A stretch of 32,000 bases of DNA from Polynucleobacter sp. Tro8-14-1 (GCF_018881655.1 NZ_JACVPX010000003.1:139772-171771); one strand, 5' to 3'; positions 10,978 to 27,389 are shown, numbered from the stretch's first letter. A program made the numbers and translations. Notes: a model not told the origin generated them from the sequence alone.

Positions 10978-11074
10978 CTTTTGACTGCAACCCGAACTTG
11001 AGCCTCGGTTGTCCTTTTGGAAATAAGAAAACACACTCTATATGTAATTTTATTTATCAAAGGAAAACCCATAA

Positions 11075-11641: not shown

Positions 11642-11665
11642 GTTTGTCGGTTTAACCGACAAACT
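11641..11665. repeat. island palindrome copy a (core GTCGGTTTAACCGAC 11646-11660)
   Basis: Perfect 12-bp arms AGTTTGTCGGTT-T-AACCGACAAACT, overlapping the stop codon of recombinase 1. Confidence 0.9.
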
Positions 11666-11758
11666 AGTGTCTCTTTAAGTGACGCTGGTAATGTCAAATC
11701 ACCACAAATCAAGCACTTTTCAGCCCAAGCGTTACTTTAAGTAACGGTGTGAAACTGC

Positions 11759-12349
11759 TTATTGGCTGCTGAGCTTATCTAGAATGAGTTGCGCTAGCGC
11801 CTTCTCGTCACCAAAAAAGGCTAACTCCATTGCTTGATACATTTGGGACTGGTTTAGATCGGAATAATTGAGCCTAAACCCAGCCTCGCTAGCTAACTGA
11901 GCAATAAACACTCGCTGCACCCGTCCATTGCCATCCCGAAATGGATGCAAGACATTAATCTCAGAAAGATAGTGGGCTAACTTCTGTGCAACTTGCTTGA
12001 TATCTTGATTTTGGAATAAATGCTCTTTAGCTAAATTACTGAATAAAGTTTTAGCGGCTGAATCAATCATGCGGATATTTGCAAAACGGCTATTTTCACG
12101 GCTTATATCTACAGTCCGAATCTTTCCAGCCCAATCATAGACATCTTGAAAAAGAGCATAGTGAATTGCTTGTAAATGCGCTAAATCAAAATTACCTTGA
12201 ATTGGCTCTAAATCTAAAGCCACTAAACGCGAAGCAGTCATATCAGACTCAAACGCCTCAAGCTCATTTTGATCCCTAAAGCCCAATTTGTTTTGCAATA
12301 CCGGAGAACCCGGATAGCAATAGACACTATCCGCGTCGTAGCGCGACAT
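11759..12349 (-). CDS. Fic-domain toxin (class I FicT-like AMP-transferase)
   Basis: Carries the Fic motif HPFRDGNGRVQR, matching HxFx(D/E)GNGRxxR. I place the start at MSRYDAD (12349) rather than the track start at 12412, which would run deep into the antitoxin ORF. Confidence 0.85.
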   Translation of the reverse strand: MSRYDADSVYCYPGSPVLQNKLGFRDQNELEAFESDMTASRLVALDLEPIQGNFDLAHLQAIHYALFQDVYDWAGKIRTVDISRENSRFANIRMIDSAAKTLFSNLAKEHLFQNQDIKQVAQKLAHYLSEINVLHPFRDGNGRVQRVFIAQLASEAGFRLNYSDLNQSQMYQAMELAFFGDEKALAQLILDKLSSQ

Positions 12350-12518
12350 AGCGTTCTTTAGTCTCTGCAATGATTTGATCGATTGTTTTTGATCCACCAA
12401 TAAAGGCATCAAAATCTTTCATCAACTCATTGCTAGGCTTCATACCCTCTACCCGCAAAGAACCCAAGGCATTGTCAACAATGTCTTTTCGGTTTAAGGT
12501 AGTTTGATTATTTTTCAT
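12327..12518 (-). CDS. VbhA/FicA-like antitoxin
   Basis: Small ORF directly upstream of fic, overlapping it by 23 nt. It contains the inhibitory motif (S/T)xxxE(G/N) as SLRVEG. The start may instead be at 12581. Confidence 0.75.
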   Translation of the reverse strand: MKNNQTTLNRKDIVDNALGSLRVEGMKPSNELMKDFDAFIGGSKTIDQIIAETKERYVALRRG

Positions 12519-12616
12519 AAGGGCTGTTTTATCTATATTACGGTATTTTAAGGGGTGCTTCCAGAAAATTAAACCCTTCATTAAGACCTGCCAGCAAATA
12601 GGGCGTAGGTTGTAGC

Positions 12617-12632
12617 GTCGGGTAAAACCGAC
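12617..12632. repeat. island palindrome copy b (GTCGGGTAAAACCGAC)
   Basis: Lies 27 nt downstream of the integrase 1 stop. Extended form is TGTAGCGTCGG...CCGACACC. Confidence 0.9.
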
Positions 12633-12659
12633 ACCAAATGGTCATCCCCTCACCCATCT

Positions 12660-13895
12660 CTACCCCGCCAATCTCTCCGCACTGAGCATTGGGGTTAGTT
12701 TGCTGTAATGACGCTCAATCATCCCTACGCTGGCTCCCATTTGCTTTGCTAGCGTATGAATATCAACTCCTTCTTCTAATCTAAATGTGGCATAGGTATG
12801 GCGAAGGCTATACAAGGTCCTGTTTTTACCAGCAGCATACTTAAACAAGCCTGATTCAACCATGAGTCGCTCAAACACGCTATCTAGACTATGGGGTGCA
12901 TCACCCGCAGGAAATACGAATACCTTACGATCCAACTTAGCTTCAATCACAGCATCGAGGTTCTTATAAGGCAAAGCCTGCCAAGTAATTAGTCGCTCTA
13001 AGGCCTCAATCACAAAATGTCTTGCAATCAGATACCTAGGCCCAGTCTTACCTGACACCCAGATCCGTAAATAGCGTTTTTCACCAATCCAGTGCCACTG
13101 CAATGATTTCCAGCGGATTGGCATGCTTTCGGTTCCCTGCCGTATCCCTGTACCTAGCAAGAACTCTACATAGACTCGGCAAAGTCTACGCATATGATTA
13201 CTGCGTTGATTGCGGCCAAAACGCTCCCAGTCCCGCATGTATTCCAATAAGTATTCGATCTCTTGGTGGCTAAAGGCTGGCCTAACCTGCGCAGCACCAC
13301 CGGTTATTTCTAATAAGGGGATATTGCGGTGTTGTGAAATAAGCCCTTGTGCTCTAGCCCGCTCAAGCACCCGCTTATAAAGACCAGCATGACGCCTTTG
13401 AGTATAGGTCTTGGGATTCTTGCCCATCTTAGATATGCGCCACGCTACATAGTCATCCACTAGCTCTTGAGTAATGTCATTGATCTGGTAGTTACCAAAG
13501 AATGGGATCAAGTACTTGGTGTAGATGTGTATGTAATCAACATGAGTGCGCTTATTGGGATTGGCTTGGACTACTCGGGCAGCCATAGCCAACTCTTGCG
13601 TGGCTAGTTGACGAAAGGTACGGGTCTTAATGGCTAGATCGCTTGCTAGCTTGACCTTGACTGTTTCATAGATAGCAATGGCTTGGGTTGTGGCTTCGGC
13701 CACCTGATCTAATCCTGTACTAGCGGAATGCCAGGCGCCAGTTGATAACTTAAAGCGGCATTGCCACTGGTGACTCGTAGGCCTCTTATAGAGGGTGATG
13801 GCACCATCAAGGAGTTTGATGGGCTCATCATCAGTGATAACGGTAGAAAATAAGAGCGATAAATTATTCATTACAAGCGTCTTGTTACGCGACAC
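12660..13895 (-). CDS. tyrosine integrase (island integrase), copy 1
   Basis: 411 aa with R (LGTGIRQGTE), HxxR region (LYSLRHTYAT) and catalytic Y (MIERHYSK). Start is GTG at 13895 or ATG at 13871. Confidence 0.9.
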   Translation of the reverse strand: MSRNKTLVMNNLSLLFSTVITDDEPIKLLDGAITLYKRPTSHQWQCRFKLSTGAWHSASTGLDQVAEATTQAIAIYETVKVKLASDLAIKTRTFRQLATQELAMAARVVQANPNKRTHVDYIHIYTKYLIPFFGNYQINDITQELVDDYVAWRISKMGKNPKTYTQRRHAGLYKRVLERARAQGLISQHRNIPLLEITGGAAQVRPAFSHQEIEYLLEYMRDWERFGRNQRSNHMRRLCRVYVEFLLGTGIRQGTESMPIRWKSLQWHWIGEKRYLRIWVSGKTGPRYLIARHFVIEALERLITWQALPYKNLDAVIEAKLDRKVFVFPAGDAPHSLDSVFERLMVESGLFKYAAGKNRTLYSLRHTYATFRLEEGVDIHTLAKQMGASVGMIERHYSKLTPMLSAERLAG

Positions 13896-13944
13896 TTGCT
13901 AGCTTAATTTCAGATTAGGGTTTGGGCGACCTGAATTATTTAGA

Positions 13945-13959
13945 GTCGGTTAAACCGAC
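13945..13959. repeat. island palindrome copy c (GTCGGTTAAACCGAC)
   Basis: Lies 50 nt upstream of the integrase 1 start and is followed by ACTACAGCG. Confidence 0.9.
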
Positions 13960-14062
13960 ACTACAGCGTCAGGGCCGCGATGGACTGTTGTTAATCACAA
14001 AGCAGCTATCACCCTACTTGCTAATGGCTAGCTCAAGTCGACCCATAGCAGACTATCGAGAC

Positions 14063-14087
14063 AACAAAAAACCCGCCTAAGCGGGTT
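14063..14087 (-). terminator. Rho-independent terminator of the outer-membrane protein gene
   Basis: The minus strand reads AACCCGC-TTAG-GCGGGTT followed by TTTTTGTT, 27 nt after the stop codon. Confidence 0.8.
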
Positions 14088-14113
14088 GATTGTTTAACAG
14101 CAGGTGGTTTGTA

Positions 14114-15493
14114 TTAGAAACCAACTGTATATGTTGCCATTACAGTAGTACTTGCTGTAGCTTGATACGCTTCTTGTCTGTAAATACCAGTTACACCTAA
14201 ACGCTGATTCTTCTCAACATCGTAAGATGCGCCAAGCATTGCTGTTGGACGGGTTTTTACAGGATTAGGGTTGAAGTTCACTGGAGTTAAACCAGTTAAG
14301 CCAGTTGCATTGTATGAACCATTAGCAGTGTTAGTGTCAGTTTCTACACCAGCACTAGCAAACAACGTGGTTTGTGGAATGCCTTTGTAGCTTGCGCCTA
14401 CGCCAGCTAATGCTGTTGTGGCATTGGTGTTGAGTGCTGAGTAGGTTAATGGCGTTGTTACAGAAGTAGAAGTTGCTTCTGTGTAACCGCCCATATTGTT
14501 CTGTGTATAACGAATACCAACATATGGTGAAACAATAACTTGGTCAGCAACACCAAAACCATACTTAGCAGTCACTTGTGCGCCTTGACTGTTCAATGTG
14601 GAGCCACCAGAACCTGCTTCGGATGCGGTAGCACCAGTGCCAACTACTGAACGATTCATCGTAGTGTTCTTTTGACCATAAGCAATAGTTGCTTTAACTT
14701 CGGTACCTGTGCCATCTAAATTTTCATTCCAAGCAGCAAATAAACCAAGTAATGGTGTGTTGTTGCCCAAGTTCACAGTAGAGCCAGCATTGTTAACCGA
14801 TAAGTTCTGGTCAGCATAAGCACCAACACGAACATTTGCCATTGCACGATAAGCGGCAATCAGTAATGCACTGGTGTTGTTCAAGCCATTAGCGGCAGAC
14901 ACGGCAGTATTGCGACCACCCGCTGATACGCAAATATCATTCTCACCAAAAACATTACAGTCATAAGAGAAGCTATTGGCTAAGACTGAGTTTTGTAATG
15001 TGTAAGTGCCTTGCAATGCTTGGACGGTGTTTTGTACGGAGACTTGGGTATTGGCTACAGATGGCCCAACTGGAAGAGGTACATAGCTAGAAATGTAAGC
15101 ATAATAGGCGTTCTGAGAACTGCCCGGCCCAGGTATCGCGTTAGTACTTCCGTTCACCCAAAAAGTAACGGTGCCGTTGCCTGTTGAGGAGGTCAGAAAT
15201 AAAACGCTTGGGAGGGTGGTGCTTGCTGTGCCATTCCAAGTTCCCAGTCTATATTGAACTTGTTGCGCAAATTGGGTTGCAAGCGATGGCTGGCCGTACC
15301 AAGGTTGGGTCGTTAATGTGTAGGCGGGGTTTGCAAGGCTGGTGGAGAGGGGCTGTAGAGCCGTCTTACCAACCGTATAGTTAATACCACCAACAGTGAC
15401 GTCAACCGTTTGCGCTTGAATATTTACTGCAAATACACTTCCAACAACTAATGCTGAAGTGATGGCGATATTTTTAATATTAAGTAATTTCAT
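14114..15493 (-). CDS. outer-membrane beta-barrel protein, autotransporter-like, short Ser/Thr/Asn/Gly-rich passenger
   Basis: 459 aa with a signal peptide (..AVNIQAQT). The C-terminal half has alternating beta-strand character and ends in ..TYTVGF (terminal Phe). Confidence 0.65.
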   Translation of the reverse strand: MKLLNIKNIAITSALVVGSVFAVNIQAQTVDVTVGGINYTVGKTALQPLSTSLANPAYTLTTQPWYGQPSLATQFAQQVQYRLGTWNGTASTTLPSVLFLTSSTGNGTVTFWVNGSTNAIPGPGSSQNAYYAYISSYVPLPVGPSVANTQVSVQNTVQALQGTYTLQNSVLANSFSYDCNVFGENDICVSAGGRNTAVSAANGLNNTSALLIAAYRAMANVRVGAYADQNLSVNNAGSTVNLGNNTPLLGLFAAWNENLDGTGTEVKATIAYGQKNTTMNRSVVGTGATASEAGSGGSTLNSQGAQVTAKYGFGVADQVIVSPYVGIRYTQNNMGGYTEATSTSVTTPLTYSALNTNATTALAGVGASYKGIPQTTLFASAGVETDTNTANGSYNATGLTGLTPVNFNPNPVKTRPTAMLGASYDVEKNQRLGVTGIYRQEAYQATASTTVMATYTVGF

Positions 15494-15747
15494 AATTCTT
15501 TACAGGTGGGTTATGTAAATCAGCTCTAGAGCTAATTTTTAGCAACCCGTATTTTACCTGCTCACCAAGTAGGTGCATAAGGTTTCATAAGCAATTACCT
15601 CGAATACAACGCTTTCATGGAGTTAAATGAGTAAAGTCGGCTTTTGGCCGTTCTCTGCCACCCAGGCACCGCCAATTACCCTGTTTTTAGCATCCACAAG
15701 CCACCGTATAAGAGCCACCTGACCGTCACTTAACAGGACACCGCACC

Positions 15748-15763
15748 GTCGGGTTAAACCGAC
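15748..15763. repeat. island palindrome copy d (GTCGGGTTAAACCGAC)
   Basis: Lies inside arm A. The homologous position in arm B (about 27097-27125) is decayed. Confidence 0.85.
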
Positions 15764-15950
15764 ACCACAAGCTCAGCCCCTAAATTTCATCAAAATTACC
15801 CAGTCGTAGGGTCGCACATAGCCCTAAGGATCGCCTACGCTAGACTCAAGGCCTCTCTAACGTCCAAAAGCCCGAGGCATTATCCACCCCACAATCAAGC
15901 CAATTAACCAGCCTGAAACAAGCCTAGAATGACAATAAATGGTAGATAAG

Positions 15951-15995
15951 TGGCCTGCCCAGCACGATTCGAACGTGCGACCTACGCCTTAGAAG
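15951..15995 (-). repeat. tRNA-Arg(TCT) 3' fragment (att-type direct repeat)
   Basis: 45 nt identical to 27313-27357, spanning from the CCA end through the T-arm, variable loop, 3' anticodon stem strand and anticodon loop. Identity stops at the 5' edge of the anticodon loop. Confidence 0.92.
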
Positions 15996-16051
15996 CTTTA
16001 AAAATGAGCTAAAACAATAGCAGAAACAATGACTTAAGCCTTAATAGATCA

Positions 16052-16113
16052 GGTGTGGCATACACACCGAGATCTGTGGAATCGTGTGGAACTGACTATG
16101 TGGTGTGTGGCAT
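16052..16113 (+). repeat. cluster of GTGTGG(C/A)A direct repeats at the distal end of GI-B
   Basis: Copies are GTGTGGCA (16053), TGTGGAA (16075), GTGTGGAA (16084) and TGTGGTGTGTGGCA (16098). GGTGTG-GCATA-CACACC also forms a small inverted repeat. Confidence 0.7.
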
Positions 16114-16126
16114 CCGCAGGCTGGGG

Positions 16127-16141
16127 GTCGGTTTAACCGAC
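16127..16141. repeat. island palindrome copy e (GTCGGTTTAACCGAC)
   Basis: Lies just inside the distal end of GI-B and is followed by ACTAAA. Confidence 0.9.
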
Positions 16142-16343
16142 ACTAAATCAGGCGAACCCACAGCAAGCCTTGGCAAACCATTTTTACTATGCCTCTCGTC
16201 CCCACGAACAGGGAAATTTATAAAGCACAAAGATCGGCAAAACCACTGCATTTTGGCGTGATTTTGCACATTAGCTATTTTGATGGGGCTTAGCGTAAAT
16301 CAGGTGGGGGATGCAATCTCGAGCGGCGCAAAAAACTACGCGG

Positions 16344-16688
16344 CTAGATATTTGCACGAGCAGCTGAAATCTGCTGTTGGGCTCGTTTAATCTTTTGTCG
16401 ATTACGCTCTGCCTTTAATGCCTTACTAGCAGTGTCTTTCTGATTTTGTAAGCTAGCCACCCTAGCCTGCTCGGGTGTTTGCGGCGGCTTAGCTTTAATT
16501 GAAGAAATAACCTCATCAATCATTTGATGCCCCCTGCTTTCATGGGTGACGAGTGATGGTTGACTAGCTAGGCTATCCATCCCAAATTGATATTGCAAAA
16601 TTAATCTAGCGTGAATTGGATTTGTGGCAAAAACAGCCGTATTTACTAACTGACCCTTGATCCTTACATAGGCTTGATATTTATTCAT
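16344..16688 (-). CDS. hypothetical protein, 114 aa, basic Gln/Lys/Arg-rich C-terminal helix
   Basis: ORF only. No Shine-Dalgarno sequence is visible and no family is recognised. Confidence 0.45.
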   Translation of the reverse strand: MNKYQAYVRIKGQLVNTAVFATNPIHARLILQYQFGMDSLASQPSLVTHESRGHQMIDEVISSIKAKPPQTPEQARVASLQNQKDTASKALKAERNRQKIKRAQQQISAARANI

Positions 16689-16727
16689 GCAAGTATTTAG
16701 CCAGTCTTATTTTGACTGACTAAAACT

Positions 16728-16748
16728 AAAGGCGCCTAATGCGCCTTT
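16728..16748. terminator. GC-rich hairpin between the toxin-antitoxin operon and the 114-aa ORF
   Basis: AAAGGCGC-CTAAT-GCGCCTTT. On the minus strand it is followed by AGTTTTAG, 28 nt after the DUF5615 stop. Confidence 0.5.
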
Positions 16749-16775
16749 AGAGTGAAATGGGTATCAGTAATTGAG

Positions 16776-17126
16776 CTACTCATGCGTAATCAAACCATCA
16801 CTAGTAATCTCTATAAAACGATGGTCCTCAAATGCTTTCGCAACAGCAGATAAGTTCGCTTGCAACAGATTCTCTAAATTGCGATTGGATATATTGCCAG
16901 TAGAAATTAACAGTAAAGCAGGTTCGCCGTTTAACAAAAAAGCCTGTACAAAGTCATCGTCTTTGGTGACTACAACTCGAGCTTCTTTAATAGCGCAAGC
17001 AATGACATCTTTATCTGGAGTTGCATTTTTGAGAGGTAGATCAGAGGTATGAATAGCATCATGTCCTTGAGCCTCCAACCAACCAACAAATCGCTTTGGC
17101 AGTTGGGCGTCTACTAAAAACTTCAT
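16776..17126 (-). CDS. DUF5615-family PIN-like putative toxin
   Basis: 116 aa starting MKFLVDAQLPKRFVGWLEAQGHDAIH, as I remember for DUF5615. A 4-nt overlap couples it to the upstream DUF433 gene. Confidence 0.7.
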   Translation of the reverse strand: MKFLVDAQLPKRFVGWLEAQGHDAIHTSDLPLKNATPDKDVIACAIKEARVVVTKDDDFVQAFLLNGEPALLLISTGNISNRNLENLLQANLSAVAKAFEDHRFIEITSDGLITHE

Positions 17127-17347
17127 GCCACCAAACGCTCAAATCGTTTAACATGACTTAATCTTGCAGCATAGGCAAGAGACGCCAAAATATCTTCTTT
17201 GTTAAGGTCTGGATAGTCAGCCAAAATCTCTTCGGTACTCATGCCGCTAGCCAGCCACTCTAAAACATTTTCTACGGGGTAACGCAAGCCGCGAATACAG
17301 GGCTTGCCATGGCAAATAACCGGATCAACAGTGATTAAATTAGCCAT
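17123..17347 (-). CDS. DUF433-family putative antitoxin
   Basis: 74 aa from ATG 17347, preceded by AAAGGAG. The DUF433-like sequence is CHGKPCIRGLRYPVENVLEWLASGMSTEEILADYPDL. Confidence 0.72.
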   Translation of the reverse strand: MANLITVDPVICHGKPCIRGLRYPVENVLEWLASGMSTEEILADYPDLNKEDILASLAYAARLSHVKRFERLVA

Positions 17348-17429
17348 TTGAATCTCCTTTCGCATCATAATTTGGCTTGTTAAAGCATGGGTAGATTTTA
17401 TACTGCTAGACCAAAAATTAGCATCTTTT

Positions 17430-17459
17430 CTTTAGAGCAATACTGCTATTGCTCTAAAG
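17430..17459. repeat. 13-bp-arm perfect palindrome
   Basis: CTTTAGAGCAATA-CTGC-TATTGCTCTAAAG, between the 148-aa ORF and the toxin-antitoxin operon. No U-tract follows on either strand. Confidence 0.6.
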
Positions 17460-17464
17460 ACCCC

Positions 17465-17911
17465 TTATAGCTGCCTCTTAAAGCCACTGCCAAGACTAGA
17501 GCTCGCTAACTCAATCTGGGGATCTAAATCCCCTGCTTCCACAGCAACCTTAACTGTTTCTAGCGCCTTAATTAAGTCCTCGGCACTATCAACTTGAATA
17601 CTGGGCTTGCCTTTGGCCAATTCAATTGTGCAAGCTCCATATCTAATGGAAACACAGACCTTCCCTTCTTCAGTCTGAAACCACCACGGCTTAATACGTT
17701 TTGGAACTTCTACTTGCTTACGAATCCCTGTCTCCTTATCTTTAATGCTGCGAAACTTCATTAGTACAAAAGGGGTTCCCGACATCTGCCCTTTAGCCAA
17801 CTGGATCTGCTCCCATAATCGACTTGAAAGTTTATTCCTTCGAATCACAATCGCTGGTTGATGAACCGGCTTCTTGAGAGCCACTAGTTTTAATGCGGTC
17901 AATGCGCTCAT
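17465..17911 (-). CDS. hypothetical protein, 148 aa
   Basis: ORF with a strong Shine-Dalgarno sequence (AGGAGGGAAT-ATG) at the internal Met (17911). No family recognised. Confidence 0.6.
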   Translation of the reverse strand: MSALTALKLVALKKPVHQPAIVIRRNKLSSRLWEQIQLAKGQMSGTPFVLMKFRSIKDKETGIRKQVEVPKRIKPWWFQTEEGKVCVSIRYGACTIELAKGKPSIQVDSAEDLIKALETVKVAVEAGDLDPQIELASSSLGSGFKRQL

Positions 17912-18274
17912 ATTCCCTCCTATAAATGAAAGAGTCATTTCAATTTATTTTCGAAATATTGGATTGGACAACCTCTTTTTTATTTTGGCTAATTTTGAGC
18001 CAGAAATTAATGGGTTTTCTTAACAAAAGCTAAATACTTTTGCGAGTTGCTGTGTTTCAAAGTACGGTCGCAAATAGATAAAGAAGTTACTGGTAGTGAG
18101 TTACTAGTTACTCGAGTGGCAAATGAGTAGCTCTGACTAGCAACACGACTTAGTGACTATCTCTTTGAGATCTGCAACTGAACTTAAAGCAACATCTTTT
18201 TGGATCTACTCCTCTAGCAACCAAGCTACGAAAGCAACAGCTCGCAACGAGAACTCAATCAATTTTAAAAAAGG

Positions 18275-18850
18275 AGAACGATATGAGAGAAATTGCAGTT
18301 AGAGGATTTATAAACGAGAAATTTAATACCACCTTCGGTAAAGGCTTATTTAGAAGAGCGATGTTTAATGGCTCAGTAGAGCTAGGTAGCCCAAATCAAA
18401 AATACCTAGTGGATTACTTTGAATATAGCAATTGGGAAAATACTGCCAAAACAGATGAGCAGATGGCAACTGTTCGAAAACTCAGCGAGGCTGGCATTGC
18501 AGAACAAGCTGGTGTTTTAATGTCTTGGATCCAACATTACGATCCACTCACTAAGACAAAGCAAGGTGTTGGCGGATTTAGCATCTACTCCCCAGAAACC
18601 AAGGAGCTGCATGTAGAGATTGAAGATCAAGCAAACAACACCAAGGATTCCTGGACGCTAGATGTACATCTTTGTAAAAGTACTGGCGTTAATAAGCCAG
18701 TGTTTATAGCAACCAATGTGGATTTGAACTAATTGACGCTTTGAATTTGTACAAAATTCGCCTCAAAAAAGCCCTATACGCAAAGATCTATTAGCTTCGC
18801 AATAATGAGTAGCTGGAATTACTAAAAACAGCGTATAGCGCGAATTTGAG
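18275..18850 (+). repeat. 576-bp near-identical direct repeat, copy 2
   Basis: See copy 1. The offset between copies is 8014 bp. Confidence 0.95.
18283..18732 (+). CDS. hypothetical protein, 149 aa (copy 2)
   Basis: Preceded by AAGGAG 6 nt before the ATG. It differs from copy 1 by one residue (E versus G). Confidence 0.7.
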   Translation: MREIAVRGFINEKFNTTFGKGLFRRAMFNGSVELGSPNQKYLVDYFEYSNWENTAKTDEQMATVRKLSEAGIAEQAGVLMSWIQHYDPLTKTKQGVGGFSIYSPETKELHVEIEDQANNTKDSWTLDVHLCKSTGVNKPVFIATNVDLN

Positions 18851-18942
18851 GTGTTACTCGAGGATCGCTGGTTTAAGTCCGTTTAGCTGTTGTCTAAATT
18901 CCACGAAAAGAAGCGATTTTTTATAAATACTACATAAAGAAC

Positions 18943-19001
18943 AGGTTAAGAAAATTGTACTTTTCTTAACCTGCCTTGTAAGTCATTGATTCTTGGAAGA
19001 T
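18943..19001 (+). promoter_or_regulatory. conserved palindrome plus 23-bp box upstream of short recombinase 2
   Basis: AGGTTAAGAAAA-TTGTAC-TTTTCTTAACCT (18943-18972), then TAAGTCATTGATTCTTGGAAGAT (18979-19001), which is identical to the box at 10955-10977. Confidence 0.55.
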
Positions 19002-19096
19002 ATTTTTTGATGGCCAAATAAACAAATTTCGGTCGACCTTTTAAGACTTAGAAAACATACTAAATACACACTTTTTATTTATCTAAGGAGAATTAA

Positions 19097-19663
19097 ATGG
19101 CACAAGCAAAAACACTATCTCAAACAGAACTAGATCTAGTTCTTAATTACGTCAGCACCAAAAAATATGCCTTGCGCGATAGAGCGTTAATACTTACAAG
19201 CTTTCTTGGTGGCCTTCGCGTTGCCGAAATTGCCAGCTTGAAAATGGGCGATGTATTAAATCTCGATGGCACTATTAAAAATGAAATCCGCCTATCGGCC
19301 TCACAAACCAAGGGTAAGCACCCTAGGACTGTATTCGTCTCACAGCGTTTACAGGCGGAATTGGCCAACTACTTAACAACAAGATACATAAAAGAAGCTG
19401 ATATTCCCCTCTTTCATACAGATCATCGTTTGAGATTTAGTGCTAATGGCTTATGTGTGTGGTTCTATCAGCTCTATAAGAATGTGGGTATTAGCGGTGG
19501 CAGCAGCCATTCAGGAAGAAAATTCTTTATTACTACCCTCGCTAATAAAGGGATTGGTGTTCGAATCTTAGCCAGTCTAGCTGGTCACAGATCAATTGCA
19601 GTGACTCAGAGATATATCGATGTCAATGATGAGCAAAAGAGGAATGCTGTCGAGCTAATTTAA
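19097..19663 (+). CDS. short (catalytic-domain-only) tyrosine recombinase, copy 2
   Basis: 188 aa, roughly three-quarters identical to copy 1 by eye, with the same catalytic residues. Preceded by AAGGAG. Confidence 0.85.
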   Translation: MAQAKTLSQTELDLVLNYVSTKKYALRDRALILTSFLGGLRVAEIASLKMGDVLNLDGTIKNEIRLSASQTKGKHPRTVFVSQRLQAELANYLTTRYIKEADIPLFHTDHRLRFSANGLCVWFYQLYKNVGISGGSSHSGRKFFITTLANKGIGVRILASLAGHRSIAVTQRYIDVNDEQKRNAVELI

Positions 19664-19669
19664 ATGGCA

Positions 19670-19685
19670 GTCGGGTAAAACCGAC
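19670..19685. repeat. island palindrome copy f (GTCGGGTAAAACCGAC)
   Basis: Begins 6 nt after the recombinase 2 stop and is followed by TCTAAC. Confidence 0.9.
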
Positions 19686-19686
19686 T

Positions 19687-20502
19687 CTAACAGGCATGCC
19701 TAGTCAATTGCGATACTCGATCTTTTGCGCAGTCAAACTCGTGATTACCTAATGAAAATAATCGGCTAGCAAAATTTTCATCTTCAAAATTAAAGCGGGT
19801 TTGAAAGCTTTTACCTAATTCTTGTTGTGGGAATATACCAAGTGCAGCCTGCTCTGAGATATTTAAAGCGCTTTCCTTGTGCCTCATGACCATTAAGGTC
19901 ATATGGCGCCGCATGTGATCATCCCCACTTTTGTGCCTTGCTGCCAATGGGTCTAACCTCCCGATAAAGCGATCTACTAGCATTGCCATTGCCCCAGCCC
20001 TCCAGAGCTCAGTATCGGGATTTAAAGCCATGGTGTAGATTAGGAGCAAATCTTTCCACATATTCTTTAATTTAGCGCCTTTAAGTACTTGACTATGAAT
20101 TTGCTTGATTTGAGTATTTGGCCAAATTTGCGATAAAGCATTAACCAGTTGGGATATTGATGGGGGGTCTTGATCGCTACAAAGCTTTAGCAATACGTCG
20201 TCATCACAAACAAAAAACCTGTCTTTGCCTTTAATAATTTCAATTACTGGAGGAGACGAATCCATCAGCTGCTTCTTATGACCTTCAAACCAAGTCGTAA
20301 ATGGACAATCTAAGACACAACCGTACTTGGAGTAACAATCTAAGATCTTACGATTATCAAGACTCATTTTCTTAGTTAATCGTTTTGGTCTCACATACTT
20401 GCTAGCGGCGGTATAGCTAGGACTTATACGTAAAAAGTTAAAGAAAAGCCTCGCCATCTCCTGATGACAGTCTTGCTGCTCCGCACAAAGTTTTCCGCCC
20501 AT
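19687..20502 (-). CDS. hypothetical protein, 271 aa
   Basis: Long ORF divergent from the next two genes, with GGAG 8 nt upstream of the ATG. No family recognised. Confidence 0.6.
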   Translation of the reverse strand: MGGKLCAEQQDCHQEMARLFFNFLRISPSYTAASKYVRPKRLTKKMSLDNRKILDCYSKYGCVLDCPFTTWFEGHKKQLMDSSPPVIEIIKGKDRFFVCDDDVLLKLCSDQDPPSISQLVNALSQIWPNTQIKQIHSQVLKGAKLKNMWKDLLLIYTMALNPDTELWRAGAMAMLVDRFIGRLDPLAARHKSGDDHMRRHMTLMVMRHKESALNISEQAALGIFPQQELGKSFQTRFNFEDENFASRLFSLGNHEFDCAKDRVSQLTRHAC

Positions 20503-20639
20503 GCGGATATCTCCAGCCTAAATTTACCTACTTTTTTTAATTCTAAATTTTGTATGTATTCACTACAGGGATGGTGAAGTGAAATCAGATTGTGAATGGA
20601 ATTCACCATCACATTTTTAACAATTTCAGGAGAAAATCC

Positions 20640-21464
20640 ATGAGTGAAACTACTGTAGTCGAATCAGGCGTTAGCGCCCCTAACGCTGAAAAAACGAATG
20701 CCAACCCTTTTGCAGTGGGAATTGGCAATTTATTAACAGGCAGCAATCCAGAAAAAGCCATCGGCGACTCTATTGATCGCCTAGTTGAATATCGCAAAAA
20801 CTGGGAAAGTAATGAGCTTTCTAGTGCAAATGATGTCTTGTATGGAATCTTGCGGCATTGTTACGCCTTAAACAACACAATGCAAGGCTCAGACAGTATT
20901 GCCAAAAGCCTTAAAAAAGGTCTAGCGAACTACATCAAGACCCATGAATACAAGTTCAGCGACAGCTCGCCACTAATCACTAAGATCGTGAAATGTGTAT
21001 TTGGTGTTGATCGTCGTAGGGTTAATGCCTATAGCACAGCTATGAAGGCAGCAATGGCTGAGAGAGTGAGCGTACTTGATCTACCAAAATATTTCCGTGA
21101 AAAAGGTGGCGTTGAGGAAGTTAGACGCTCTACTACTAGCAAAGGCAAATCGATTGCTCAGAAGGTGGAATTAGGACGTACTGTACTCAATGGCGAAATA
21201 CTAGCGAAGGTACAAAGTGATTCTCTTAATGCCTCATTCTCAAATGAGCAGCTAGAGGAAGGTGTTGTGTTGCTGGCAACACGAGAAGATGATGGCAGTT
21301 TTGCAATCCGCAGAGTCATCCAAAGTGGAACAGCAGTTAAATCAGCGTTAGCAGCTTGCTCCAGTGTCGGCGCTGAAAAAGAAAAAGCACAGAAACTAGC
21401 TGATGAGGCTAAAGCAATTGAAGATGAGCGTTTAGCCGCCCAATCTAAATTAAAAGCTGCTTGA
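20640..21464 (+). CDS. hypothetical protein, 274 aa, Ala/Lys/Glu-rich C-terminal tail
   Basis: The start at 20640 follows AGGAG. The C-terminus EKEKAQKLADEAKAIEDERLAAQSKLKAA looks like a coiled coil. No family recognised. Confidence 0.65.
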   Translation: MSETTVVESGVSAPNAEKTNANPFAVGIGNLLTGSNPEKAIGDSIDRLVEYRKNWESNELSSANDVLYGILRHCYALNNTMQGSDSIAKSLKKGLANYIKTHEYKFSDSSPLITKIVKCVFGVDRRRVNAYSTAMKAAMAERVSVLDLPKYFREKGGVEEVRRSTTSKGKSIAQKVELGRTVLNGEILAKVQSDSLNASFSNEQLEEGVVLLATREDDGSFAIRRVIQSGTAVKSALAACSSVGAEKEKAQKLADEAKAIEDERLAAQSKLKAA

Positions 21465-21480
21465 GCTTGTTGTTCTACAT

Positions 21481-21523
21481 ATGATTGCTGGCATTTACCT
21501 TCCAAGATAAATCCAGCAATCAT
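21481..21523 (+). terminator. 11-bp-stem hairpin with T-rich tail between the 274-aa gene and the AAA+ gene
   Basis: ATGATTGCTGG-(21 nt)-CCAGCAATCAT followed by TTCATTATTTT. The loop is large, so it may be an attenuator or processing site rather than a strong terminator. Confidence 0.4.
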
Positions 21524-21546
21524 TTCATTATTTTAAGGAGATTGCG

Positions 21547-22296
21547 ATGCATAACCCTAGACCACCCTCTATTGTCATACAAGCACCCGGATGTTTAGAT
21601 GATTTTGCTTTACAACCTAATAGTCGATTTAAGCTTGAGTCCATACTTGATTTAAGTCTGCATATTCCAGCTAACGGTATTTGTGGGATTGTTCTATATG
21701 GTTTATACGGAACTGGTAAAACTACTCTGGCCAACTTATTGCCAGGCTTAATTGAAACGGCCAAAGTCAATCCTGCTTGTGCAGCATTGAATGCTGGATC
21801 TATCATTGATACAGAAGATCCTAATTCAGATTATTTTGCCTGCGCACAAGGTCAGAACGGCGCTCAATTAACTCAATCGATTCAAAATAGAACCACTTAT
21901 ATGTCATTTAATAGTAGTGGTCTACATTACATCATCATGGATGAGGTTGATGTCTTAACCCCAGCAGCGCAAGCAGGCTTCAAATCAATCATGAATCGTA
22001 AAGACGTCATATTCATCATGACTAGCAATAACTTAGATCAAATTGATAAAGGCCTTCAGAATCGATCAATTTTGATTGATATGAATGTTCCACCAATTAA
22101 TGATTGGCGACCAATTTTGCGTCGTGTTTATGAAAATGCAGGTCTACCAGCACCGCCTGATGATGTATTAGATCAAGTGGTTCAGGCTGGTAGAGGATCA
22201 GCTCGAAGCATTTTTTCAGATATCGTGATGAGCGTTAACCAAGAGGTGAGAGAAAAGCATGAGACTCACTTAATTACCCTTAAAGCATGCAGTTAA
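21547..22296 (+). CDS. clamp-loader/RFC-like AAA+ ATPase, 249 aa
   Basis: Walker A GLYGTGKTT, Walker B IIMDEVD, sensor-1 MTSNN, SRC-like QNRS and sensor-2-like GRGSARS. A Shine-Dalgarno AAGGAG lies upstream. Confidence 0.75.
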   Translation: MHNPRPPSIVIQAPGCLDDFALQPNSRFKLESILDLSLHIPANGICGIVLYGLYGTGKTTLANLLPGLIETAKVNPACAALNAGSIIDTEDPNSDYFACAQGQNGAQLTQSIQNRTTYMSFNSSGLHYIIMDEVDVLTPAAQAGFKSIMNRKDVIFIMTSNNLDQIDKGLQNRSILIDMNVPPINDWRPILRRVYENAGLPAPPDDVLDQVVQAGRGSARSIFSDIVMSVNQEVREKHETHLITLKACS

Positions 22297-22308
22297 GTGA
22301 TATGTAGC

Positions 22309-22324
22309 GTCGGGTAAAACCGAC
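22309..22324. repeat. island palindrome copy g (GTCGGGTAAAACCGAC)
   Basis: The extended near-palindrome TGTAGCGTCGGGTAAAACCGACACTACA (22303-22330) lies between the AAA+ stop and the integrase 2 stop. Confidence 0.9.
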
Positions 22325-22325
22325 A

Positions 22326-23567
22326 CTACATGATTGCCCCTGCCAATCTTTCCGCACTCATCATTGGTGTTAATTTTGAATAATGACGCTCAATCATCCC
22401 TACGCTGGTTCCCATTTGCTTTGCTAGCGTATGAATATCAACTCCTTCTTCTAATCTAAATGTGGCATAGGTATGGCGAAGGCTATACAAGGTCCTGTTT
22501 TTACCAGCAGCATACTTAAACAAGCCTGATTCAACCATGAGTCGCTCAAACACGCTATCTAGACTATGGGGTGCATCACCCGCAGGAAATACGAATACCT
22601 TACGATCCAACTTGGCTTCAATGACAGCATCGAGATTGGCATAAGGCAAAGCTTGCCACTTGATTAGTCGCTCTAAACTATCAATAACAAAGTGACGGGC
22701 AATCAAATATCTCGGCCCCGTCTTGCCCGATACCCAGACTCTTAAGTACCGCTTTTCACCTATCCAATGCCACTGTAGGCTACGCCAGCGAATTGGCATG
22801 CTCTCTGTTCCCTGCCGTATTCCCGTTCCTAGCAAAAACTCTACATAGACCCGGCAAAGTCTGCGCATATGATTACTGCGTTGATTGCGGCCAAAACGCT
22901 CCCAGTCCCGCATGTATTCCAATAAGTATTCGATCTCTTGGTGGCTAAAGGCTGGCCTAACCTGCGCAGCACCACCGGTTATTTCTAATAAGGGGATATT
23001 GCGGTGTTGTGTAATAAGCCCTTGTGATCTAGCTCGTTCAATCACTCGCTTATAAAGACCAGCATGACGCCTTTGGGTATAGGTCTTGGGATTCTTGCCC
23101 ATCCGAGATATGCGCCACGCTACATAGTCATCCACTAGCTCTTGGGTAATGTCATTGACCTGGTAGCCACCAAAGAATGGGATCAAGTACTTGGTGTAGA
23201 TGTGAATGTAGTCCGCATGGGTGCGTTTATTGGGATTGGCCTGGACTACTCGGGCAGCTGCAGCTAGTTCTTGCGTGGCTAATTGCCGAAAAGTCTTGGT
23301 CTTAATGGCTAGATCACTGGCTAGCTTGACCTTGACTGTTTCATAGATAGCAATGGCTTGGGTTGTGGCTTCGGCCACCTGATCTAAGCCAGTACTTGCG
23401 GAATGCCAAGCACCAGTAGATAACTTAAAACGGCATTGCCATTGGTGACTCGTGGGTCTTTTATAGAGGGTGATGGCACCATCAAGGAGTTTGATTGGCT
23501 CTTCAGCGATAGTAGAAGCAAACAACAGGGATATATTATTCATTACAAGCGTCTCGTTACATGACAC
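22326..23567 (-). CDS. tyrosine integrase (island integrase), copy 2
   Basis: 413 aa, roughly 93-95 % identical to copy 1 by eye, with the same catalytic motifs. Confidence 0.9.
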   Translation of the reverse strand: MSCNETLVMNNISLLFASTIAEEPIKLLDGAITLYKRPTSHQWQCRFKLSTGAWHSASTGLDQVAEATTQAIAIYETVKVKLASDLAIKTKTFRQLATQELAAAARVVQANPNKRTHADYIHIYTKYLIPFFGGYQVNDITQELVDDYVAWRISRMGKNPKTYTQRRHAGLYKRVIERARSQGLITQHRNIPLLEITGGAAQVRPAFSHQEIEYLLEYMRDWERFGRNQRSNHMRRLCRVYVEFLLGTGIRQGTESMPIRWRSLQWHWIGEKRYLRVWVSGKTGPRYLIARHFVIDSLERLIKWQALPYANLDAVIEAKLDRKVFVFPAGDAPHSLDSVFERLMVESGLFKYAAGKNRTLYSLRHTYATFRLEEGVDIHTLAKQMGTSVGMIERHYSKLTPMMSAERLAGAIM

Positions 23568-23615
23568 TTGTAGCTTAATTTCAGATTTACGTTTGGGCGA
23601 CCTGAATTATTTACT

Positions 23616-23630
23616 GTCGGTTAAACCGAC
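23616..23630. repeat. island palindrome copy h (GTCGGTTAAACCGAC)
   Basis: Lies 49 nt upstream of the integrase 2 start and is followed by ACTACAGCG. Confidence 0.9.
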
Positions 23631-23766
23631 ACTACAGCGACAGGGCCGCGATGGACTGTTGTTAATCACAAAGCAGACCTTAGCCTAAATTGAGCATGGC
23701 AGTCAGAGTTTGACCCAAGGGAGACCTTGGAGGACAAGTCCAGTAACTCATCCCCCTAGTGTGTTA

Positions 23767-24267
23767 CTACCTTGACCGATCCATCCACATATAGTTCTGC
23801 TGCATCATTTGGTTCATCATGTTCTGCTGCATACCCATGTATTGATCCATCATGTATTGGCGTTGCTTTAACTGCTCAGGTGTTAATTTAGAGTAATAGG
23901 GGCCCACACCATTCCAACCCATCATGTGTCCACCCATCATGCCGCCGTTACCACCACAACAACCCATCATTCCCGAACCCCACATGCCTTGCATCATATT
24001 CATGTTGCCCTGCATTGTGCTCCAGTGAGCCTGCATCAGCTTTTGCCTTTCTTGCGGATCTTGAGTTGCACGGATCTGATCCATCTGCTGTTGCATCTTT
24101 TTAAAGTTCTCTTGAATTTGAGCGGCTTGCTTATCAAACTCCGCTACATCAACATTTTTTTGTTGTGTCTGTGAGGCTTTAGTGCCCGCCCCTGCTGTTT
24201 GCGCCAAAACGGGCGCACTTAGTAAAACACCTAAACTTAAAATCGCAACCCATCCTAGCTTTTTCAT
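23767..24267 (-). CDS. periplasmic Met/Gln-rich protein with LTxxQ motif (CpxP/Spy/ZraP-like metal-stress protein)
   Basis: 166 aa from ATG 24267 (Shine-Dalgarno AAGGAG) with a signal peptide (..SAPVLAQT). It has an LTPEQ motif and very Met-rich segments (MMQGMWGSGMMGCCGGNGGMMGGHMMGW). It lies directly downstream of the P1B-ATPase. Confidence 0.65.
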   Translation of the reverse strand: MKKLGWVAILSLGVLLSAPVLAQTAGAGTKASQTQQKNVDVAEFDKQAAQIQENFKKMQQQMDQIRATQDPQERQKLMQAHWSTMQGNMNMMQGMWGSGMMGCCGGNGGMMGGHMMGWNGVGPYYSKLTPEQLKQRQYMMDQYMGMQQNMMNQMMQQNYMWMDRSR

Positions 24268-24308
24268 TTTAGTACTCCTTGAGTTAACTGCTTGATATGA
24301 ACTAACAC

Positions 24309-26489
24309 CTAGCTTCTTAATAACCGCAATCCATTTGCCACTACTAGCAAGCTCGCACCCATATCCGCAAATACCGCCATCCACATCGTGGCTTGCCCTG
24401 TAAAGGTAAGCACAAGGAAAATAGCTTTAATGCCAAGAGCAAGAACAATGTTTTGAGTCAGAATTAGAGCGGTTGATTTGGATAGCCGAATAAAGGTAGC
24501 AATCTTGCGTAAATCATCATCCATTAGCGCAACATCAGCAGTCTCTATCGCAGTATCGGTTCCAGCCGCACCCATCGCAAATCCAATACTTGCTCTTGCT
24601 AAAGCGGGGGCATCATTAATGCCATCTCCAACCATGCCTACCTTTACATTGGGATCCTTTTTTAGGCGACTGTCAATTATTTTGAGCTTATCTTCAGGCA
24701 ATAAATTACCCATAATCTCATCGACACCCACCTGTTTACCTATTGCCTTAGCGGTGTGCTGATTGTCACCAGTGAGCATGATGGTAGTCACGCCTAATTG
24801 GTGAAGCTCATCAATAGCCTGCTTGCTTGTTTCTCTAACAGTATCGGCCACCGCAATAATGGCTAAAACCTCTGTTTGGTTGGTAAGCAATACGGCCGTT
24901 TTGCCTTGCTGCTCTAGTGGTAATAAACGATTCTCAATATCATCAGAGCACAAACCCAATTCTTCAATCAGTCGATGATTGCCAAGGTAATACAAATTAC
25001 CCTCAATAACGCCTTTGACACCGCGACCCAGAATCGCCTCAAAGCTATCTACAGTCTTTAAATCATTCTTTTGCTCTTGATTAGCATGGGCAATTGCTAG
25101 AGATACGGGATGATCAGATCGCGCTGCAAGACTAATGGCAATTTCGTGAATATGCTTGTCATTGCTACTTAATGCAAAAAAGTCCGTTTGTGCAGGCTTC
25201 CCGTAGGTTAGTGTCCCTGTCTTATCTACTGCTAAGACCTTCATGCTCCGTCCTGCTTCTAAAAAAGCGCCTCCTTTAATTAAGATGCCTTTTCTTGCAG
25301 CGGCTGCTAAGCCACTCACAATCGTTACTGGTGTTGAGATCACCAAAGCACAAGGGCAGGCAATCACTAACATGACTAATGCTTTATAGATCCACTCTTG
25401 CCATGACTGCGCTATTAACAATGGAGGCAAAACAGCGACTAACACCGCAAGCAAAAAAACAGCTGGCGTATAGATCTTGGCGAATTGATCAACAAAACGC
25501 TGGGTGGGCGCACGACTTCCTTGCGCTGCTTCAACTGCATGAATAATTCGAGCTAGCGTTGAATGAGTCGCTTCTGCAGTAACTTTGTATTCGAACGATC
25601 CTGTCTGATTGATCGTTCCTGCAAATACCTCATCGCCAACTATCTTATCGACGGGTAGGCTCTCACCCGTGATTGGCGCTTGATTTACTGCCGAGTTACC
25701 ACTTATTAATATGCCGTCTAAAGCTATTCGCTCTCCAGGACGCACTCGAACTAAAGCACCTAAAGCGATAGCCTTTACATCCGTTAGCACCCAAGAGCCA
25801 TCGGCTTGCTGAACGGTTGCGGTTTCAGGGGTGAGGTCTAATAAGCCACGAATCGCATTACGAGCACGATCTAATGACTTGGCTTCAATTACTTCAGCTA
25901 GAGTAAATAAGAACATCACCATGGCGGCTTCTGGCCAACTTCCAATCGCCATCGCGCCTGTGACTGCAATTGACATTAAGGCATTGATATTGAGATTGCC
26001 ATTCTTTAATGCAATCCAGCCCTTTTTATAGGTGGTCAGGCCACCTGAAGCAATTGAGGCGATTACTAGAGCAATGACAATCCACTGATTACCAAGTTGC
26101 AGCAATTCCATGATTTCAGCCAAGGTTGCAGTGATACCTGCAACAGCCAATGGCCACCAATTTTTTTTAGGTATAGGCTCAATCGAGCTGTCCTTTGTAG
26201 AAGTCTGACCACTTTGTAGCACCGCCTGCATTCCAATTGAACCCAAAGCGGACTCGATAGCGTCAAGTGAGTTGAGATTGTGACCAACCGTGAGTATCCT
26301 TTGCATTAAGTTAAAGTCCAGCGACTCAATGCCGCTTACACTAACTAGCTTTTTGCGAATAAGCGCCTCTTCAGTTGGGCAGTCCATATTTTCAATGCGA
26401 TAGATGGCCTTATTCTTGCTCCGTATCTCAGAAGCCTTTGTCACAGGGGTTGATGTAGAACAACTACAGGAGGTATTGCATTCGCTCAT
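24309..26489 (-). CDS. heavy-metal (Cd/Zn/Pb-type) translocating P1B-type ATPase
   Basis: 726 aa with an N-terminal metal-binding domain (NMDCPTEE). It has the membrane CPC motif (ACPCALVISTP), phosphorylation site DKTGTLT and hinge GDGINDAP. Confidence 0.93.
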   Translation of the reverse strand: MSECNTSCSCSTSTPVTKASEIRSKNKAIYRIENMDCPTEEALIRKKLVSVSGIESLDFNLMQRILTVGHNLNSLDAIESALGSIGMQAVLQSGQTSTKDSSIEPIPKKNWWPLAVAGITATLAEIMELLQLGNQWIVIALVIASIASGGLTTYKKGWIALKNGNLNINALMSIAVTGAMAIGSWPEAAMVMFLFTLAEVIEAKSLDRARNAIRGLLDLTPETATVQQADGSWVLTDVKAIALGALVRVRPGERIALDGILISGNSAVNQAPITGESLPVDKIVGDEVFAGTINQTGSFEYKVTAEATHSTLARIIHAVEAAQGSRAPTQRFVDQFAKIYTPAVFLLAVLVAVLPPLLIAQSWQEWIYKALVMLVIACPCALVISTPVTIVSGLAAAARKGILIKGGAFLEAGRSMKVLAVDKTGTLTYGKPAQTDFFALSSNDKHIHEIAISLAARSDHPVSLAIAHANQEQKNDLKTVDSFEAILGRGVKGVIEGNLYYLGNHRLIEELGLCSDDIENRLLPLEQQGKTAVLLTNQTEVLAIIAVADTVRETSKQAIDELHQLGVTTIMLTGDNQHTAKAIGKQVGVDEIMGNLLPEDKLKIIDSRLKKDPNVKVGMVGDGINDAPALARASIGFAMGAAGTDTAIETADVALMDDDLRKIATFIRLSKSTALILTQNIVLALGIKAIFLVLTFTGQATMWMAVFADMGASLLVVANGLRLLRS

Positions 26490-26520
26490 AGCGGAAACCT
26501 AAATGATGAAGACATAGAAC

Positions 26521-26551
26521 ATTTAACACCCTATAGTAACTATAGAGTCAA
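26521..26551 (-). promoter_or_regulatory. MerR-type promoter/operator of the ATPase gene
   Basis: The minus strand reads TTGACT-(19 nt)-TTAAAT. The over-long spacer contains the palindrome CTATAGT-A-ACTATAG (plus strand about 26531-26545). It is divergent from the MerR-family gene. Confidence 0.7.
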
Positions 26552-26587
26552 GGGATTAGAATAAAAATGTAAAAACTTGGAGGTCAA

Positions 26588-26986
26588 ATGAGAATTGGTG
26601 AACTAGCAACAGCCACAGGCACTCAAGTGGAAACTATTCGGTTTTATGAGCAAGAGGGTTTGTTAGCAAAACCGGCTCGATCTGAGGGTAACTTCCGAAT
26701 CTACGGGGATCAGCACCTGCAACGCCTTACATTTATTCGCCACTGCCGCTCGCTGGACATGACCTTAAGTGAAATTCGTCAATTACTTCGCTTAAAAGAT
26801 TTGCCCGATGAAAACTGTGATGCAGTAAATGAATTGCTTGATGCCCATATTGAAGGTGTAAGCAATCGAATTAATGAGCTACGCCAACTTGAGCGACAAT
26901 TAAAGCTGCTCAGAAAACAATGTCATGCGAATCAGGACTCAGCACACTGCGGGATCTTAAATAAATTATCGCTACCCGTGAAGTAA
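26588..26986 (+). CDS. MerR-family metal-responsive regulator (CadR/PbrR/ZntR-like)
   Basis: 132 aa with an N-terminal MerR HTH (MRIGELATATGTQVETIRFYEQEGLL). It has a dimerisation helix and C-terminal Cys residues (..ENCD.., ..KQCH.., ..AHCG..). Confidence 0.88.
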   Translation: MRIGELATATGTQVETIRFYEQEGLLAKPARSEGNFRIYGDQHLQRLTFIRHCRSLDMTLSEIRQLLRLKDLPDENCDAVNELLDAHIEGVSNRINELRQLERQLKLLRKQCHANQDSAHCGILNKLSLPVK

Positions 26987-27012
26987 AAAAGAGGTGACAC
27001 TACCGCCTCTTA

Positions 27013-27389
<377 letters not shown>

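Follow-up and report, generated by a model that had tools for sequence, protein, structure and literature searches.

In a window of 32,000 nucleotides from Polynucleobacter sp. Tro8-14-1 (GCF_018881655.1, NZ_JACVPX010000003.1:139772-171771), by which we mean the whole stretch of DNA that was analysed, three genes lie between two short palindromes in a tRNA-integrating genomic island. Gene A (19687-20502, minus strand) encodes an orphan protein of 271 amino acids and is divergent from genes B (20640-21464, plus strand), which encodes a strongly conserved orphan of 274 amino acids, and C (21547-22296, plus strand), which encodes a 249-amino-acid AAA+ ATPase of the clamp-loader clade. An initial annotation made from the sequence alone had described the three as an unrecognised module, and its reading frames are real: every A homologue opens MGG..., and all homologues of B open MSE..., which supports the ATG at 20640 with an AGGAG 8 nt upstream as the start of the 274-amino-acid protein. 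The 290-amino-acid frame beginning at a GTG, obtained for B by a mechanical call, receives no support from these starts.

Loci related to the triad were gathered in three independent ways, with C, B or the island's integrase as seed, and they establish it as a conserved module that occurs widely beyond the source genome. Of the 57 distinct B proteins whose flanking sequence reaches at least 3 kb on each side, 55 have a same-strand C gene next to them, 51 a small tyrosine recombinase within 2.5 kb and 49 an integrase within 9 kb; the pairing of B with C is obligate. Wherever a C- or B-seeded locus is long enough, the order is small recombinase (+), A (−), B (+), C (+), with the integrase downstream and a DUF6641 gene upstream of the triad, and a gene stands at the position of A in all loci despite its divergence. 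The arrangement does not change between Beta-, Alpha- and Gammaproteobacteria, being kept in Polynucleobacter, Limnohabitans, Rhodoferax, Hydrogenophaga, Methylophilaceae and Rhodocyclales, in a metagenome-assembled genome assigned to Legionellaceae, in Methylophaga, and in the alphaproteobacteria Sphingorhabdus, Erythrobacter and Aestuariivirga. Loci 90-98% identical to that of the window occur in many species. The alphaproteobacterial versions (L056-L058, around 11664-11743) carry a complete tRNA-Thr gene between C and the integrase, and one of them (L058) has a tRNA-Cys on the integrase's other side.

Seeding by the integrase introduces no bias towards or against the triad, and it gave 52 loci with at least 5 kb downstream of the integrase. 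The small recombinase is present in 45 of these, DUF6641 in 41, B in 27 and both B and C in 24; by these counts no other content of the slot between the two recombinases is as common as the triad, which is nonetheless not universal. B and C were found only in islands that share the same backbone of integrase, 188-amino-acid recombinase and DUF6641 protein, and their co-occurrence with that recombinase, in a fixed gene order, makes the triad an island-specific cassette and no free cargo, contrary to its first description as the content of a cargo slot. A literature search on DUF6641, DUF3220 and clamp-loader-like ATPases in genomic islands turned up a description of neither the module nor the island backbone.

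All the AAA+ motifs first read in C are present (Walker A GLYGTGKTT, Walker B IIMDEVD, sensor-1 TSNN, QNRS and sensor-2 GRGSARS), and the residues on which they turn are invariant in 27 homologues: K58 in Walker A, D132 and E133 in Walker B, N161 in sensor 1, R173 in QNRS at the SRC position, and R220 in sensor 2. With its catalytic residues invariant, C is predicted to be a catalytically competent ATPase. The proposed resemblance to RFC/DnaX-type clamp loaders also held. C matches phrog_168, 'clamp loader of DNA polymerase', at 5e-17; its best single-sequence match in the PDB is yeast RFC5 (4e-5), to which the family profile aligns at 1e-11 over positions 11-220 of 248; and its nearest annotated phage relatives are T4-type clamp loaders at about 25% identity. 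The whole AAA+ module of clamp-loader subunits (RFC small subunits, T4 gp44, DnaX/HolB, RarA) aligns with C, which has a box II-like N-terminal segment, GxxGTGKT, DExD, the sensor-1 N, NRS and GSAR, and more diverged C variants open KYAPKxLxEV, comparable to the KYRP of RFC.

The differences from that clade are nonetheless substantial. Its members have 320-360 amino acids against 249 in C; the SRC motif of C, reading NRS, keeps the arginine but loses S and C; a conserved insertion, CxQGQNG, separates Walker A from Walker B; no clamp partner accompanies the gene; and NCBIfam RFC/DnaX models, though reaching E 1e-7, give only 25-31 bits where the cut-offs are 250-588, about ten times too low. 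Alignments stop at residue 232-252 of the 354 of RFC5, and C itself ends about 25 residues after sensor 2, which makes it a protein of base and lid domains only, lacking the collar. C thus belongs among the AAA+ ATPases of the clamp-loader clade without being a clamp loader in the family sense; it is a new branch of this known clade, one that has no collar. Elsewhere its similarities are slight: the DnaC-like phrog_50 reaches an E value of 0.03 only, DnaC is otherwise unmatched, TniB and IstB are absent from the Pfam matches at E ≤ 0.1, and PADLOC returns local TRIP13 matches (6.5e-5, residues 40-67) and weaker ones to the P-loop. That C should be a true clamp loader, or a clamp-associated repair factor given by the island to host replication and repair, is therefore hard to credit: RFC subunits and phage gp44-type clamp loaders are its best sequence relatives, but it lacks the collar domain that assembles pentamers, its scores, at 31 bits against 280-300, fall far under the family cut-offs, no clamp gene lies alongside, and neither A nor B has any clamp or clamp-loader similarity, B being predicted as helical and not clamp-like, albeit from a poor model (predicted local distance difference test, pLDDT, 56).

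B itself belongs to a large family. An exhaustive profile search recovered 872 clusters (at 50% identity) at E ≤ 1e-3 and 533 at E ≤ 1e-10, nearly all of whose members are stand-alone proteins of 250-320 amino acids. They are marked by the motif (K/R)CVFGxDRRRxSAY, also written KCVFGxDRRRxxAY, and by a GGxEExR loop, also written GG(I/V)EExRR, and among 57 diverse members Y131 and G157 are invariant. The initial annotation could place neither A nor B in a family, and this stands: B has no match in Pfam, NCBIfam, PHROGs or PADLOC (E ≤ 1), and a profile search of the PDB came back empty. In an AlphaFold2 model, built before the diverse family alignment existed, the N-terminal part is helical, a small region contains strands, and a helix of 44 residues (230-273) lies at the C-terminus. 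Single-protein context scans of two very distant B representatives (P0388, P0414) found nothing. On the Azospirillum plasmid pAB510d (L193, 7001-11592), a small-recombinase homologue (45% identical) is followed by a convergent gene for a 253-amino-acid orphan, and nearby lies a 579-amino-acid protein with a weak B-like region (E 2e-6); judging from this layout, the set may be a distant relative of the module.

Between B and C, at 21481-21523 on the plus strand, stands a hairpin that had been noted from the sequence, whose perfect stem of 11 bp precedes a T-rich run (−22 kcal/mol, z = −2.3). In 40 of 83 distinct B-C spacers a perfect stem reaches at least 8 bp, compared with 5.5 bp in shuffled sequence; across diverged loci the hairpin is kept in place and in its pairing while the sequences differ. 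Conservation of position and pairing, not of sequence, is more in keeping with partial termination or attenuation than with a site recognised by its sequence.

A diverges fast: loci in which B and C are still 60-67% identical have A at 33-40%. An N-terminal motif, FNFLR(I/V)SPSY, is conserved, as are many invariant charged and aromatic residues, which could be catalytic. Its sole family signal is a sub-threshold match to DUF3220 (E 0.0016), seen in 6 of 24 homologues; A falls in no family of Pfam, NCBIfam, PHROGs or PADLOC (for the last, no match at E ≤ 1), its profile search of the PDB was empty, and its AlphaFold2 model (pLDDT 69, predicted template modelling score 0.65) has no Foldseek match in the PDB or BFVD. 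A possible likeness of FNFLRxSPSY to WEFLRRNPxY of the DUF6499/FseA-type regulators of integrative and conjugative elements found no support in Pfam scans of 11 diverse A proteins.

The region from which A and B diverge (20503-20639) combines an AT-rich stretch, conserved blocks, GTGAA repeats and an inverted repeat. Blocks TTGTATGTATTCA and TGAAATCA are conserved even in loci whose B is about 60% identical, and the AT-rich stretch, with three GTGAA repeats and one inverted copy, occupies 20525-20610. Proposed from the sequence as a plausible operator, the region does contain the repeats and an 8-bp inverted repeat, one base from where it had been placed (20571-20578 and 20602-20609, with extended arms at 20570-20587 and 20593-20610); what did not hold is the 8-bp sequence, which already differs in relatives that are 98% identical (L010 has ATGCTGAA). 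At the same spot of the A-B spacer an inverted repeat recurs across loci, but its sequence varies.

The module was said to lie between two palindromes, and both are real. Palindrome f (AGTCGG-GTAAAA-CCGACT, 19669-19688) fills the 23-bp gap between the convergent 188-amino-acid recombinase gene and A, forming the left cassette junction; palindrome g (CGTCGG-GTAAAA-CCGACA, 22308-22327), at the right junction, falls between the stop of C and that of the 413-amino-acid integrase gene. They share a common core, TCGGGTAAAACCGA, with four matches in the window against 0.18 expected, and belong to a family GTCGG-N(4-7)-CCGAC, mostly N5-6, of which the window holds eight copies (11647, 12618, 13946, 15749, 16128, 19671, 22310 and 23617), confined to the two islands present there, with one at every module junction. 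Four copies with an asymmetric GT(A/T)AAA loop share one direction. Over 2.95 Mb of related loci the density is 0.11 per kb, against 0.004 per kb in shuffled sequence (about 27-fold), and a palindrome stands at the 3′ end of 31 of 113 small-recombinase genes and 36 of 113 integrase genes, that is, in a subset of islands. They could be recombination sites, protein-binding sites or merely short homology patches.

Comparison with relatives places the breaks in similarity at these palindromes. In relatives with other slot contents, nucleotide similarity to the window ends at 19657-19665 and resumes at 22303-22359; in those with one extra gene after C it is unbroken to 22297 and resumes at 22338 (insertion 22298-22337); and in one locus with a Fic gene upstream of A (L022) it begins at 19664. 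Since similarity breaks there, the two palindromes are the cassette junctions. Between recombinase genes 85-92% identical to those of the window lie B/C pairs only 40-48% or about 30% identical, and the triad is a discrete exchangeable cassette existing as several diverged variants. Besides the triad, the slot in relatives may hold Fic, a 317-349-amino-acid protein with one of 104 amino acids, or a 195-228-amino-acid protein that starts MPKLN. The 317-349- and 195-228-amino-acid proteins were considered as B homologues and rejected by hhalign; they match nothing in Pfam or PADLOC. Single genomes can hold several islands of the family: two with different B/C variants lie 19 kb apart on one contig (L059 and L073), another genome has L079, L089 and L095, and the B variants that reside together are 96% and 40% identical to that of the window. 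The pattern fits diversification driven by incompatibility or immunity.

A slot of variable content raises the possibility of an anti-phage defence, abortive-infection or exclusion cassette, carried there as other defence genes are, with the fast-evolving A as putative sensor or effector and B-C as a putative switch driven by ATP; from the neighbourhood, the initial annotation had named anti-phage defence as one option beside island maintenance or replication. Near-identical islands do differ in what the slot holds, palindromes prone to recombination flank it, the distribution is patchy (about half of islands), toxin-antitoxin genes lie nearby, and A combines sensor-like divergence, much faster than that of B and C, with its possibly catalytic invariant residues. 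The slot of the sister island to the left (around 10261-15900), a truncated copy without the triad, had been thought to hold a toxin-antitoxin pair; one Fic/Doc-family gene was found there (11759-12412, minus strand), a candidate defence gene by its matches to PADLOC PDC-S04 (1e-75) and, weakly, SoFic (1e-7). This support is circumstantial, however. No model of PADLOC-DB v2 is really matched, the TRIP13 matches of C covering the P-loop and short stretches only; no effector domain is recognisable; and in L022 Fic sits beside the triad, not in its place, so that Fic adds to the triad instead of replacing it. Defence systems usually roam many elements and hotspots, but B and C were never seen outside one island family, in none of the varied defence-island or mobile-element contexts of known systems, and are absent from the plasmid and viral collections searched. 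We consider a defence function unlikely.

The triad-bearing island spans about 15996-27262 (11 kb) and is flanked by an exact 95-bp direct repeat (15901-15995 and 27263-27357, the former being the left attachment, att, copy) that consists of the 3′ half of tRNA-Arg(TCT) and 50 further nucleotides. Direct repeats of a tRNA 3′ end, together with a tyrosine integrase (413 amino acids, 22326-23567, minus strand), identify it as a tRNA-integrating island. Just inside both att repeats is an 82%-identical stretch (15708-15790 and 27076-27158) with a palindrome copy, and from this stretch and the repeat pair tandem islands at one tRNA are indicated. From its left end the island carries a PIN-like DUF5615 protein of 116 amino acids and an upstream partner of 114 amino acids (16344-17126, minus strand), probably a toxin-antitoxin pair; the DUF6641 protein (17465-17938, minus strand); a 149-amino-acid orphan (18283-18732, plus strand), of which many related loci have a counterpart and which with DUF6641 is part of the conserved island backbone; the 188-amino-acid recombinase (19097-19663, plus strand); the triad; the integrase; and heavy-metal cargo. 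This last, between integrase and tRNA (23767-26986), encodes a 205-amino-acid Met/Gln/Gly-rich protein with a signal-like N-terminus, a heavy-metal P-type ATPase of 726 amino acids and a MerR regulator. Neither an excisionase nor a primase or helicase was recognised in the island, and no conjugation genes were seen in the window or related loci.

The 188-amino-acid protein, directly upstream of A in nearly all loci, is a tyrosine recombinase catalytic domain alone: Pfam PF00589 (5e-22) covers residues 6-179 of 188, at profile positions 2-171 of 172. A second copy, 76% identical, stands in the sister island (11075-11641), and homologues occur on 940 PLSDB plasmids, chiefly of Acinetobacter, Piscirickettsia and Legionella. 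Many related islands (L194-L203, for example L194:797-1822; L003:14446-15474; L005:9423-10451) have a third tyrosine recombinase of 341-342 amino acids, often adjoining DUF6641, and so the family can carry three.

These enzymes suggest that A-B-C might instead be an accessory of recombination or transfer, working with the tyrosine recombinases at the palindromes or att sites as an excision directionality or remodelling factor, as a driver of cassette exchange or, were the 188-amino-acid protein a MOB_M relaxase, as part of a relaxosome, with C the counterpart of AAA+ regulators such as TnsC and MuB. The invariant layout of small recombinase, convergent A and then B-C, the position of the palindromes exactly at module junctions, the need of a catalytic-domain-only recombinase for DNA-recognition partners and the lack of a recognised excisionase all speak for such a role. 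In Salmonella genomic island 1 (SGI1), moreover, MpsA requires MpsB (PMC6414798), and MobK-type relaxases have the same catalytic-domain-only architecture (PMC8152469); for MOB_M the profile criterion is at least 84 bits (bioRxiv 10.64898/2026.01.13.699239). Like the genes for MOB_M relaxases of SGI1-type islands (MpsA/MpsB, MobK, TcpM), the 188-amino-acid gene encodes a catalytic domain alone, lies near an integrase gene and has a short GC-rich inverted repeat beside it, but the palindrome occurs three to four times per island here and once there, SGI1 has no counterpart of A, B or C, and the likeness concerns the neighbouring gene, not the triad. The lack of co-divergence between B/C and the recombinases disfavours specific protein contacts between them, 18 of the 45 small-recombinase islands are without B/C, C is unmatched to the TniB, IstB and DnaC families, and conjugation genes are wanting. 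An accessory role of this kind accordingly seems doubtful to us.

A bolder version, for which we see only a slim chance, makes A-B-C a new ATP-driven DNA-transaction machine of this undescribed multi-tyrosine-recombinase island family, acting on palindromes or att sites. A collar-less RFC-like ATPase and two orphans would then control excision, cassette exchange or single-strand processing. The known AAA+ transposition regulators (TnsC, TniB, MuB, IstB) differ in setting, the triad's neighbours being tyrosine recombinases and no DDE transposase; if real, the machine would be the tyrosine-recombinase counterpart of TnsC/MuB-type regulators of DDE transposases.

Our first-ranked, though still tentative, reading is that the triad is a self-contained life-cycle module for the replication or maintenance of the excised circular island. 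In its favour are the restriction to one island family, the pairing of B with C beside the recombinase and integrase, the self-contained variants, an initiator-plus-loader layout, an ATPase with invariant catalytic residues, a position and frequency reminiscent of tycheposons, and the lack of a match to any system listed in PADLOC. Ordinary cargo or portable defence genes are expected in plasmids, prophages and other hotspots; that the triad keeps to a single island family, and to one order and orientation in three classes of Proteobacteria, speaks for a role in the island's own life cycle. That B/C do not co-diverge with the recombinases, and that different variants share a genome, suggests a self-contained module with its specificity determinants inside the cassette. 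Phages, satellites and plasmids have replication, immunity and incompatibility modules with this mosaic behaviour.

The layout, a divergent fast-evolving gene, a control region, a protein of about 270 amino acids, a hairpin and an ATPase of about 250, resembles modules of an initiator with an AAA+ loader (lambda O/P, DnaC-type, and those of phage-inducible chromosomal islands, PICIs, and tycheposons). They too have two co-transcribed genes of about 270 and 250 codons, the second for an ATPase, together with a divergently transcribed regulator and a control region that is conserved, and the triad, like them, adjoins an integrase and is optional and mosaic among similar elements (bioRxiv 10.1101/2020.12.28.424599). 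The definition of tycheposons given there includes an 'optional, small replication module', which the triad, by analogy, matches in its position by the integrase and its presence in about 50% of islands. Tycheposons and other tRNA-targeting islands are also alike in their 11-kb scale, tRNA 3′-end repeat, inward-facing tyrosine integrase, adaptive cargo (here heavy-metal efflux), tandem arrays and genome-streamlined planktonic host; they are unlike the present family in its second (188 amino acids) and sometimes third (341 amino acids) recombinase, its DUF6641 protein and its palindromes at module junctions.

If the triad is a replication or maintenance module, A would be its specific regulator, acting on the conserved A-B control region; B, with its Arg-rich motif and a C-terminal helix that may oligomerise, would be a DNA-binding initiator or adaptor whose target site lies inside the cassette; and C would spend ATP on loading or remodelling, at the site of B, either a component of the host replisome or DNA. 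The B-C hairpin would lower read-through and so yield more B than C.

Several observations weigh against this reading. Profile searches assigned the triad to no known replication or partition family; none of its proteins has sequence or fold similarity to a known replication initiator, primase, helicase or DnaC-type loader, the model of B being poor and its Foldseek matches noise, and C belongs to the clamp-loader clade and not to the initiator/DnaC clade of helicase loaders, nor to that of IstB. No iteron array occurs within 19600-22400. Replicon modules are usually common to plasmids and phages, yet the B protein has no homologue in PLSDB (72,556 plasmids) or IMG/VR and the DNA of the triad region no PLSDB match. 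Triad-bearing metagenome contigs end at variable cargo, with no sign of a circular or amplified island, and the small-recombinase islands without B/C mark the module as inessential to the family.

From the sequence comparisons we infer that the triad is new as an accessory life-cycle module of a tRNA-integrating island, its A and B proteins being without detectable relatives of known function or fold. B alone accounts for at least 872 unannotated clusters at 50% identity, tied to one island backbone and paired with an RFC-like ATPase, which may represent a new use of the clamp-loader ATPase fold. The sharp, palindrome-bounded junctions show how islands swap modules, and the triad can serve as a metagenome marker of the island family. 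The adaptive genes of Polynucleobacter, Limnohabitans, Methylophilaceae and related bacteria, which rank with the most abundant in fresh water, are carried about on islands; the function of B-C would explain how a large unannotated class of these islands persists or moves.

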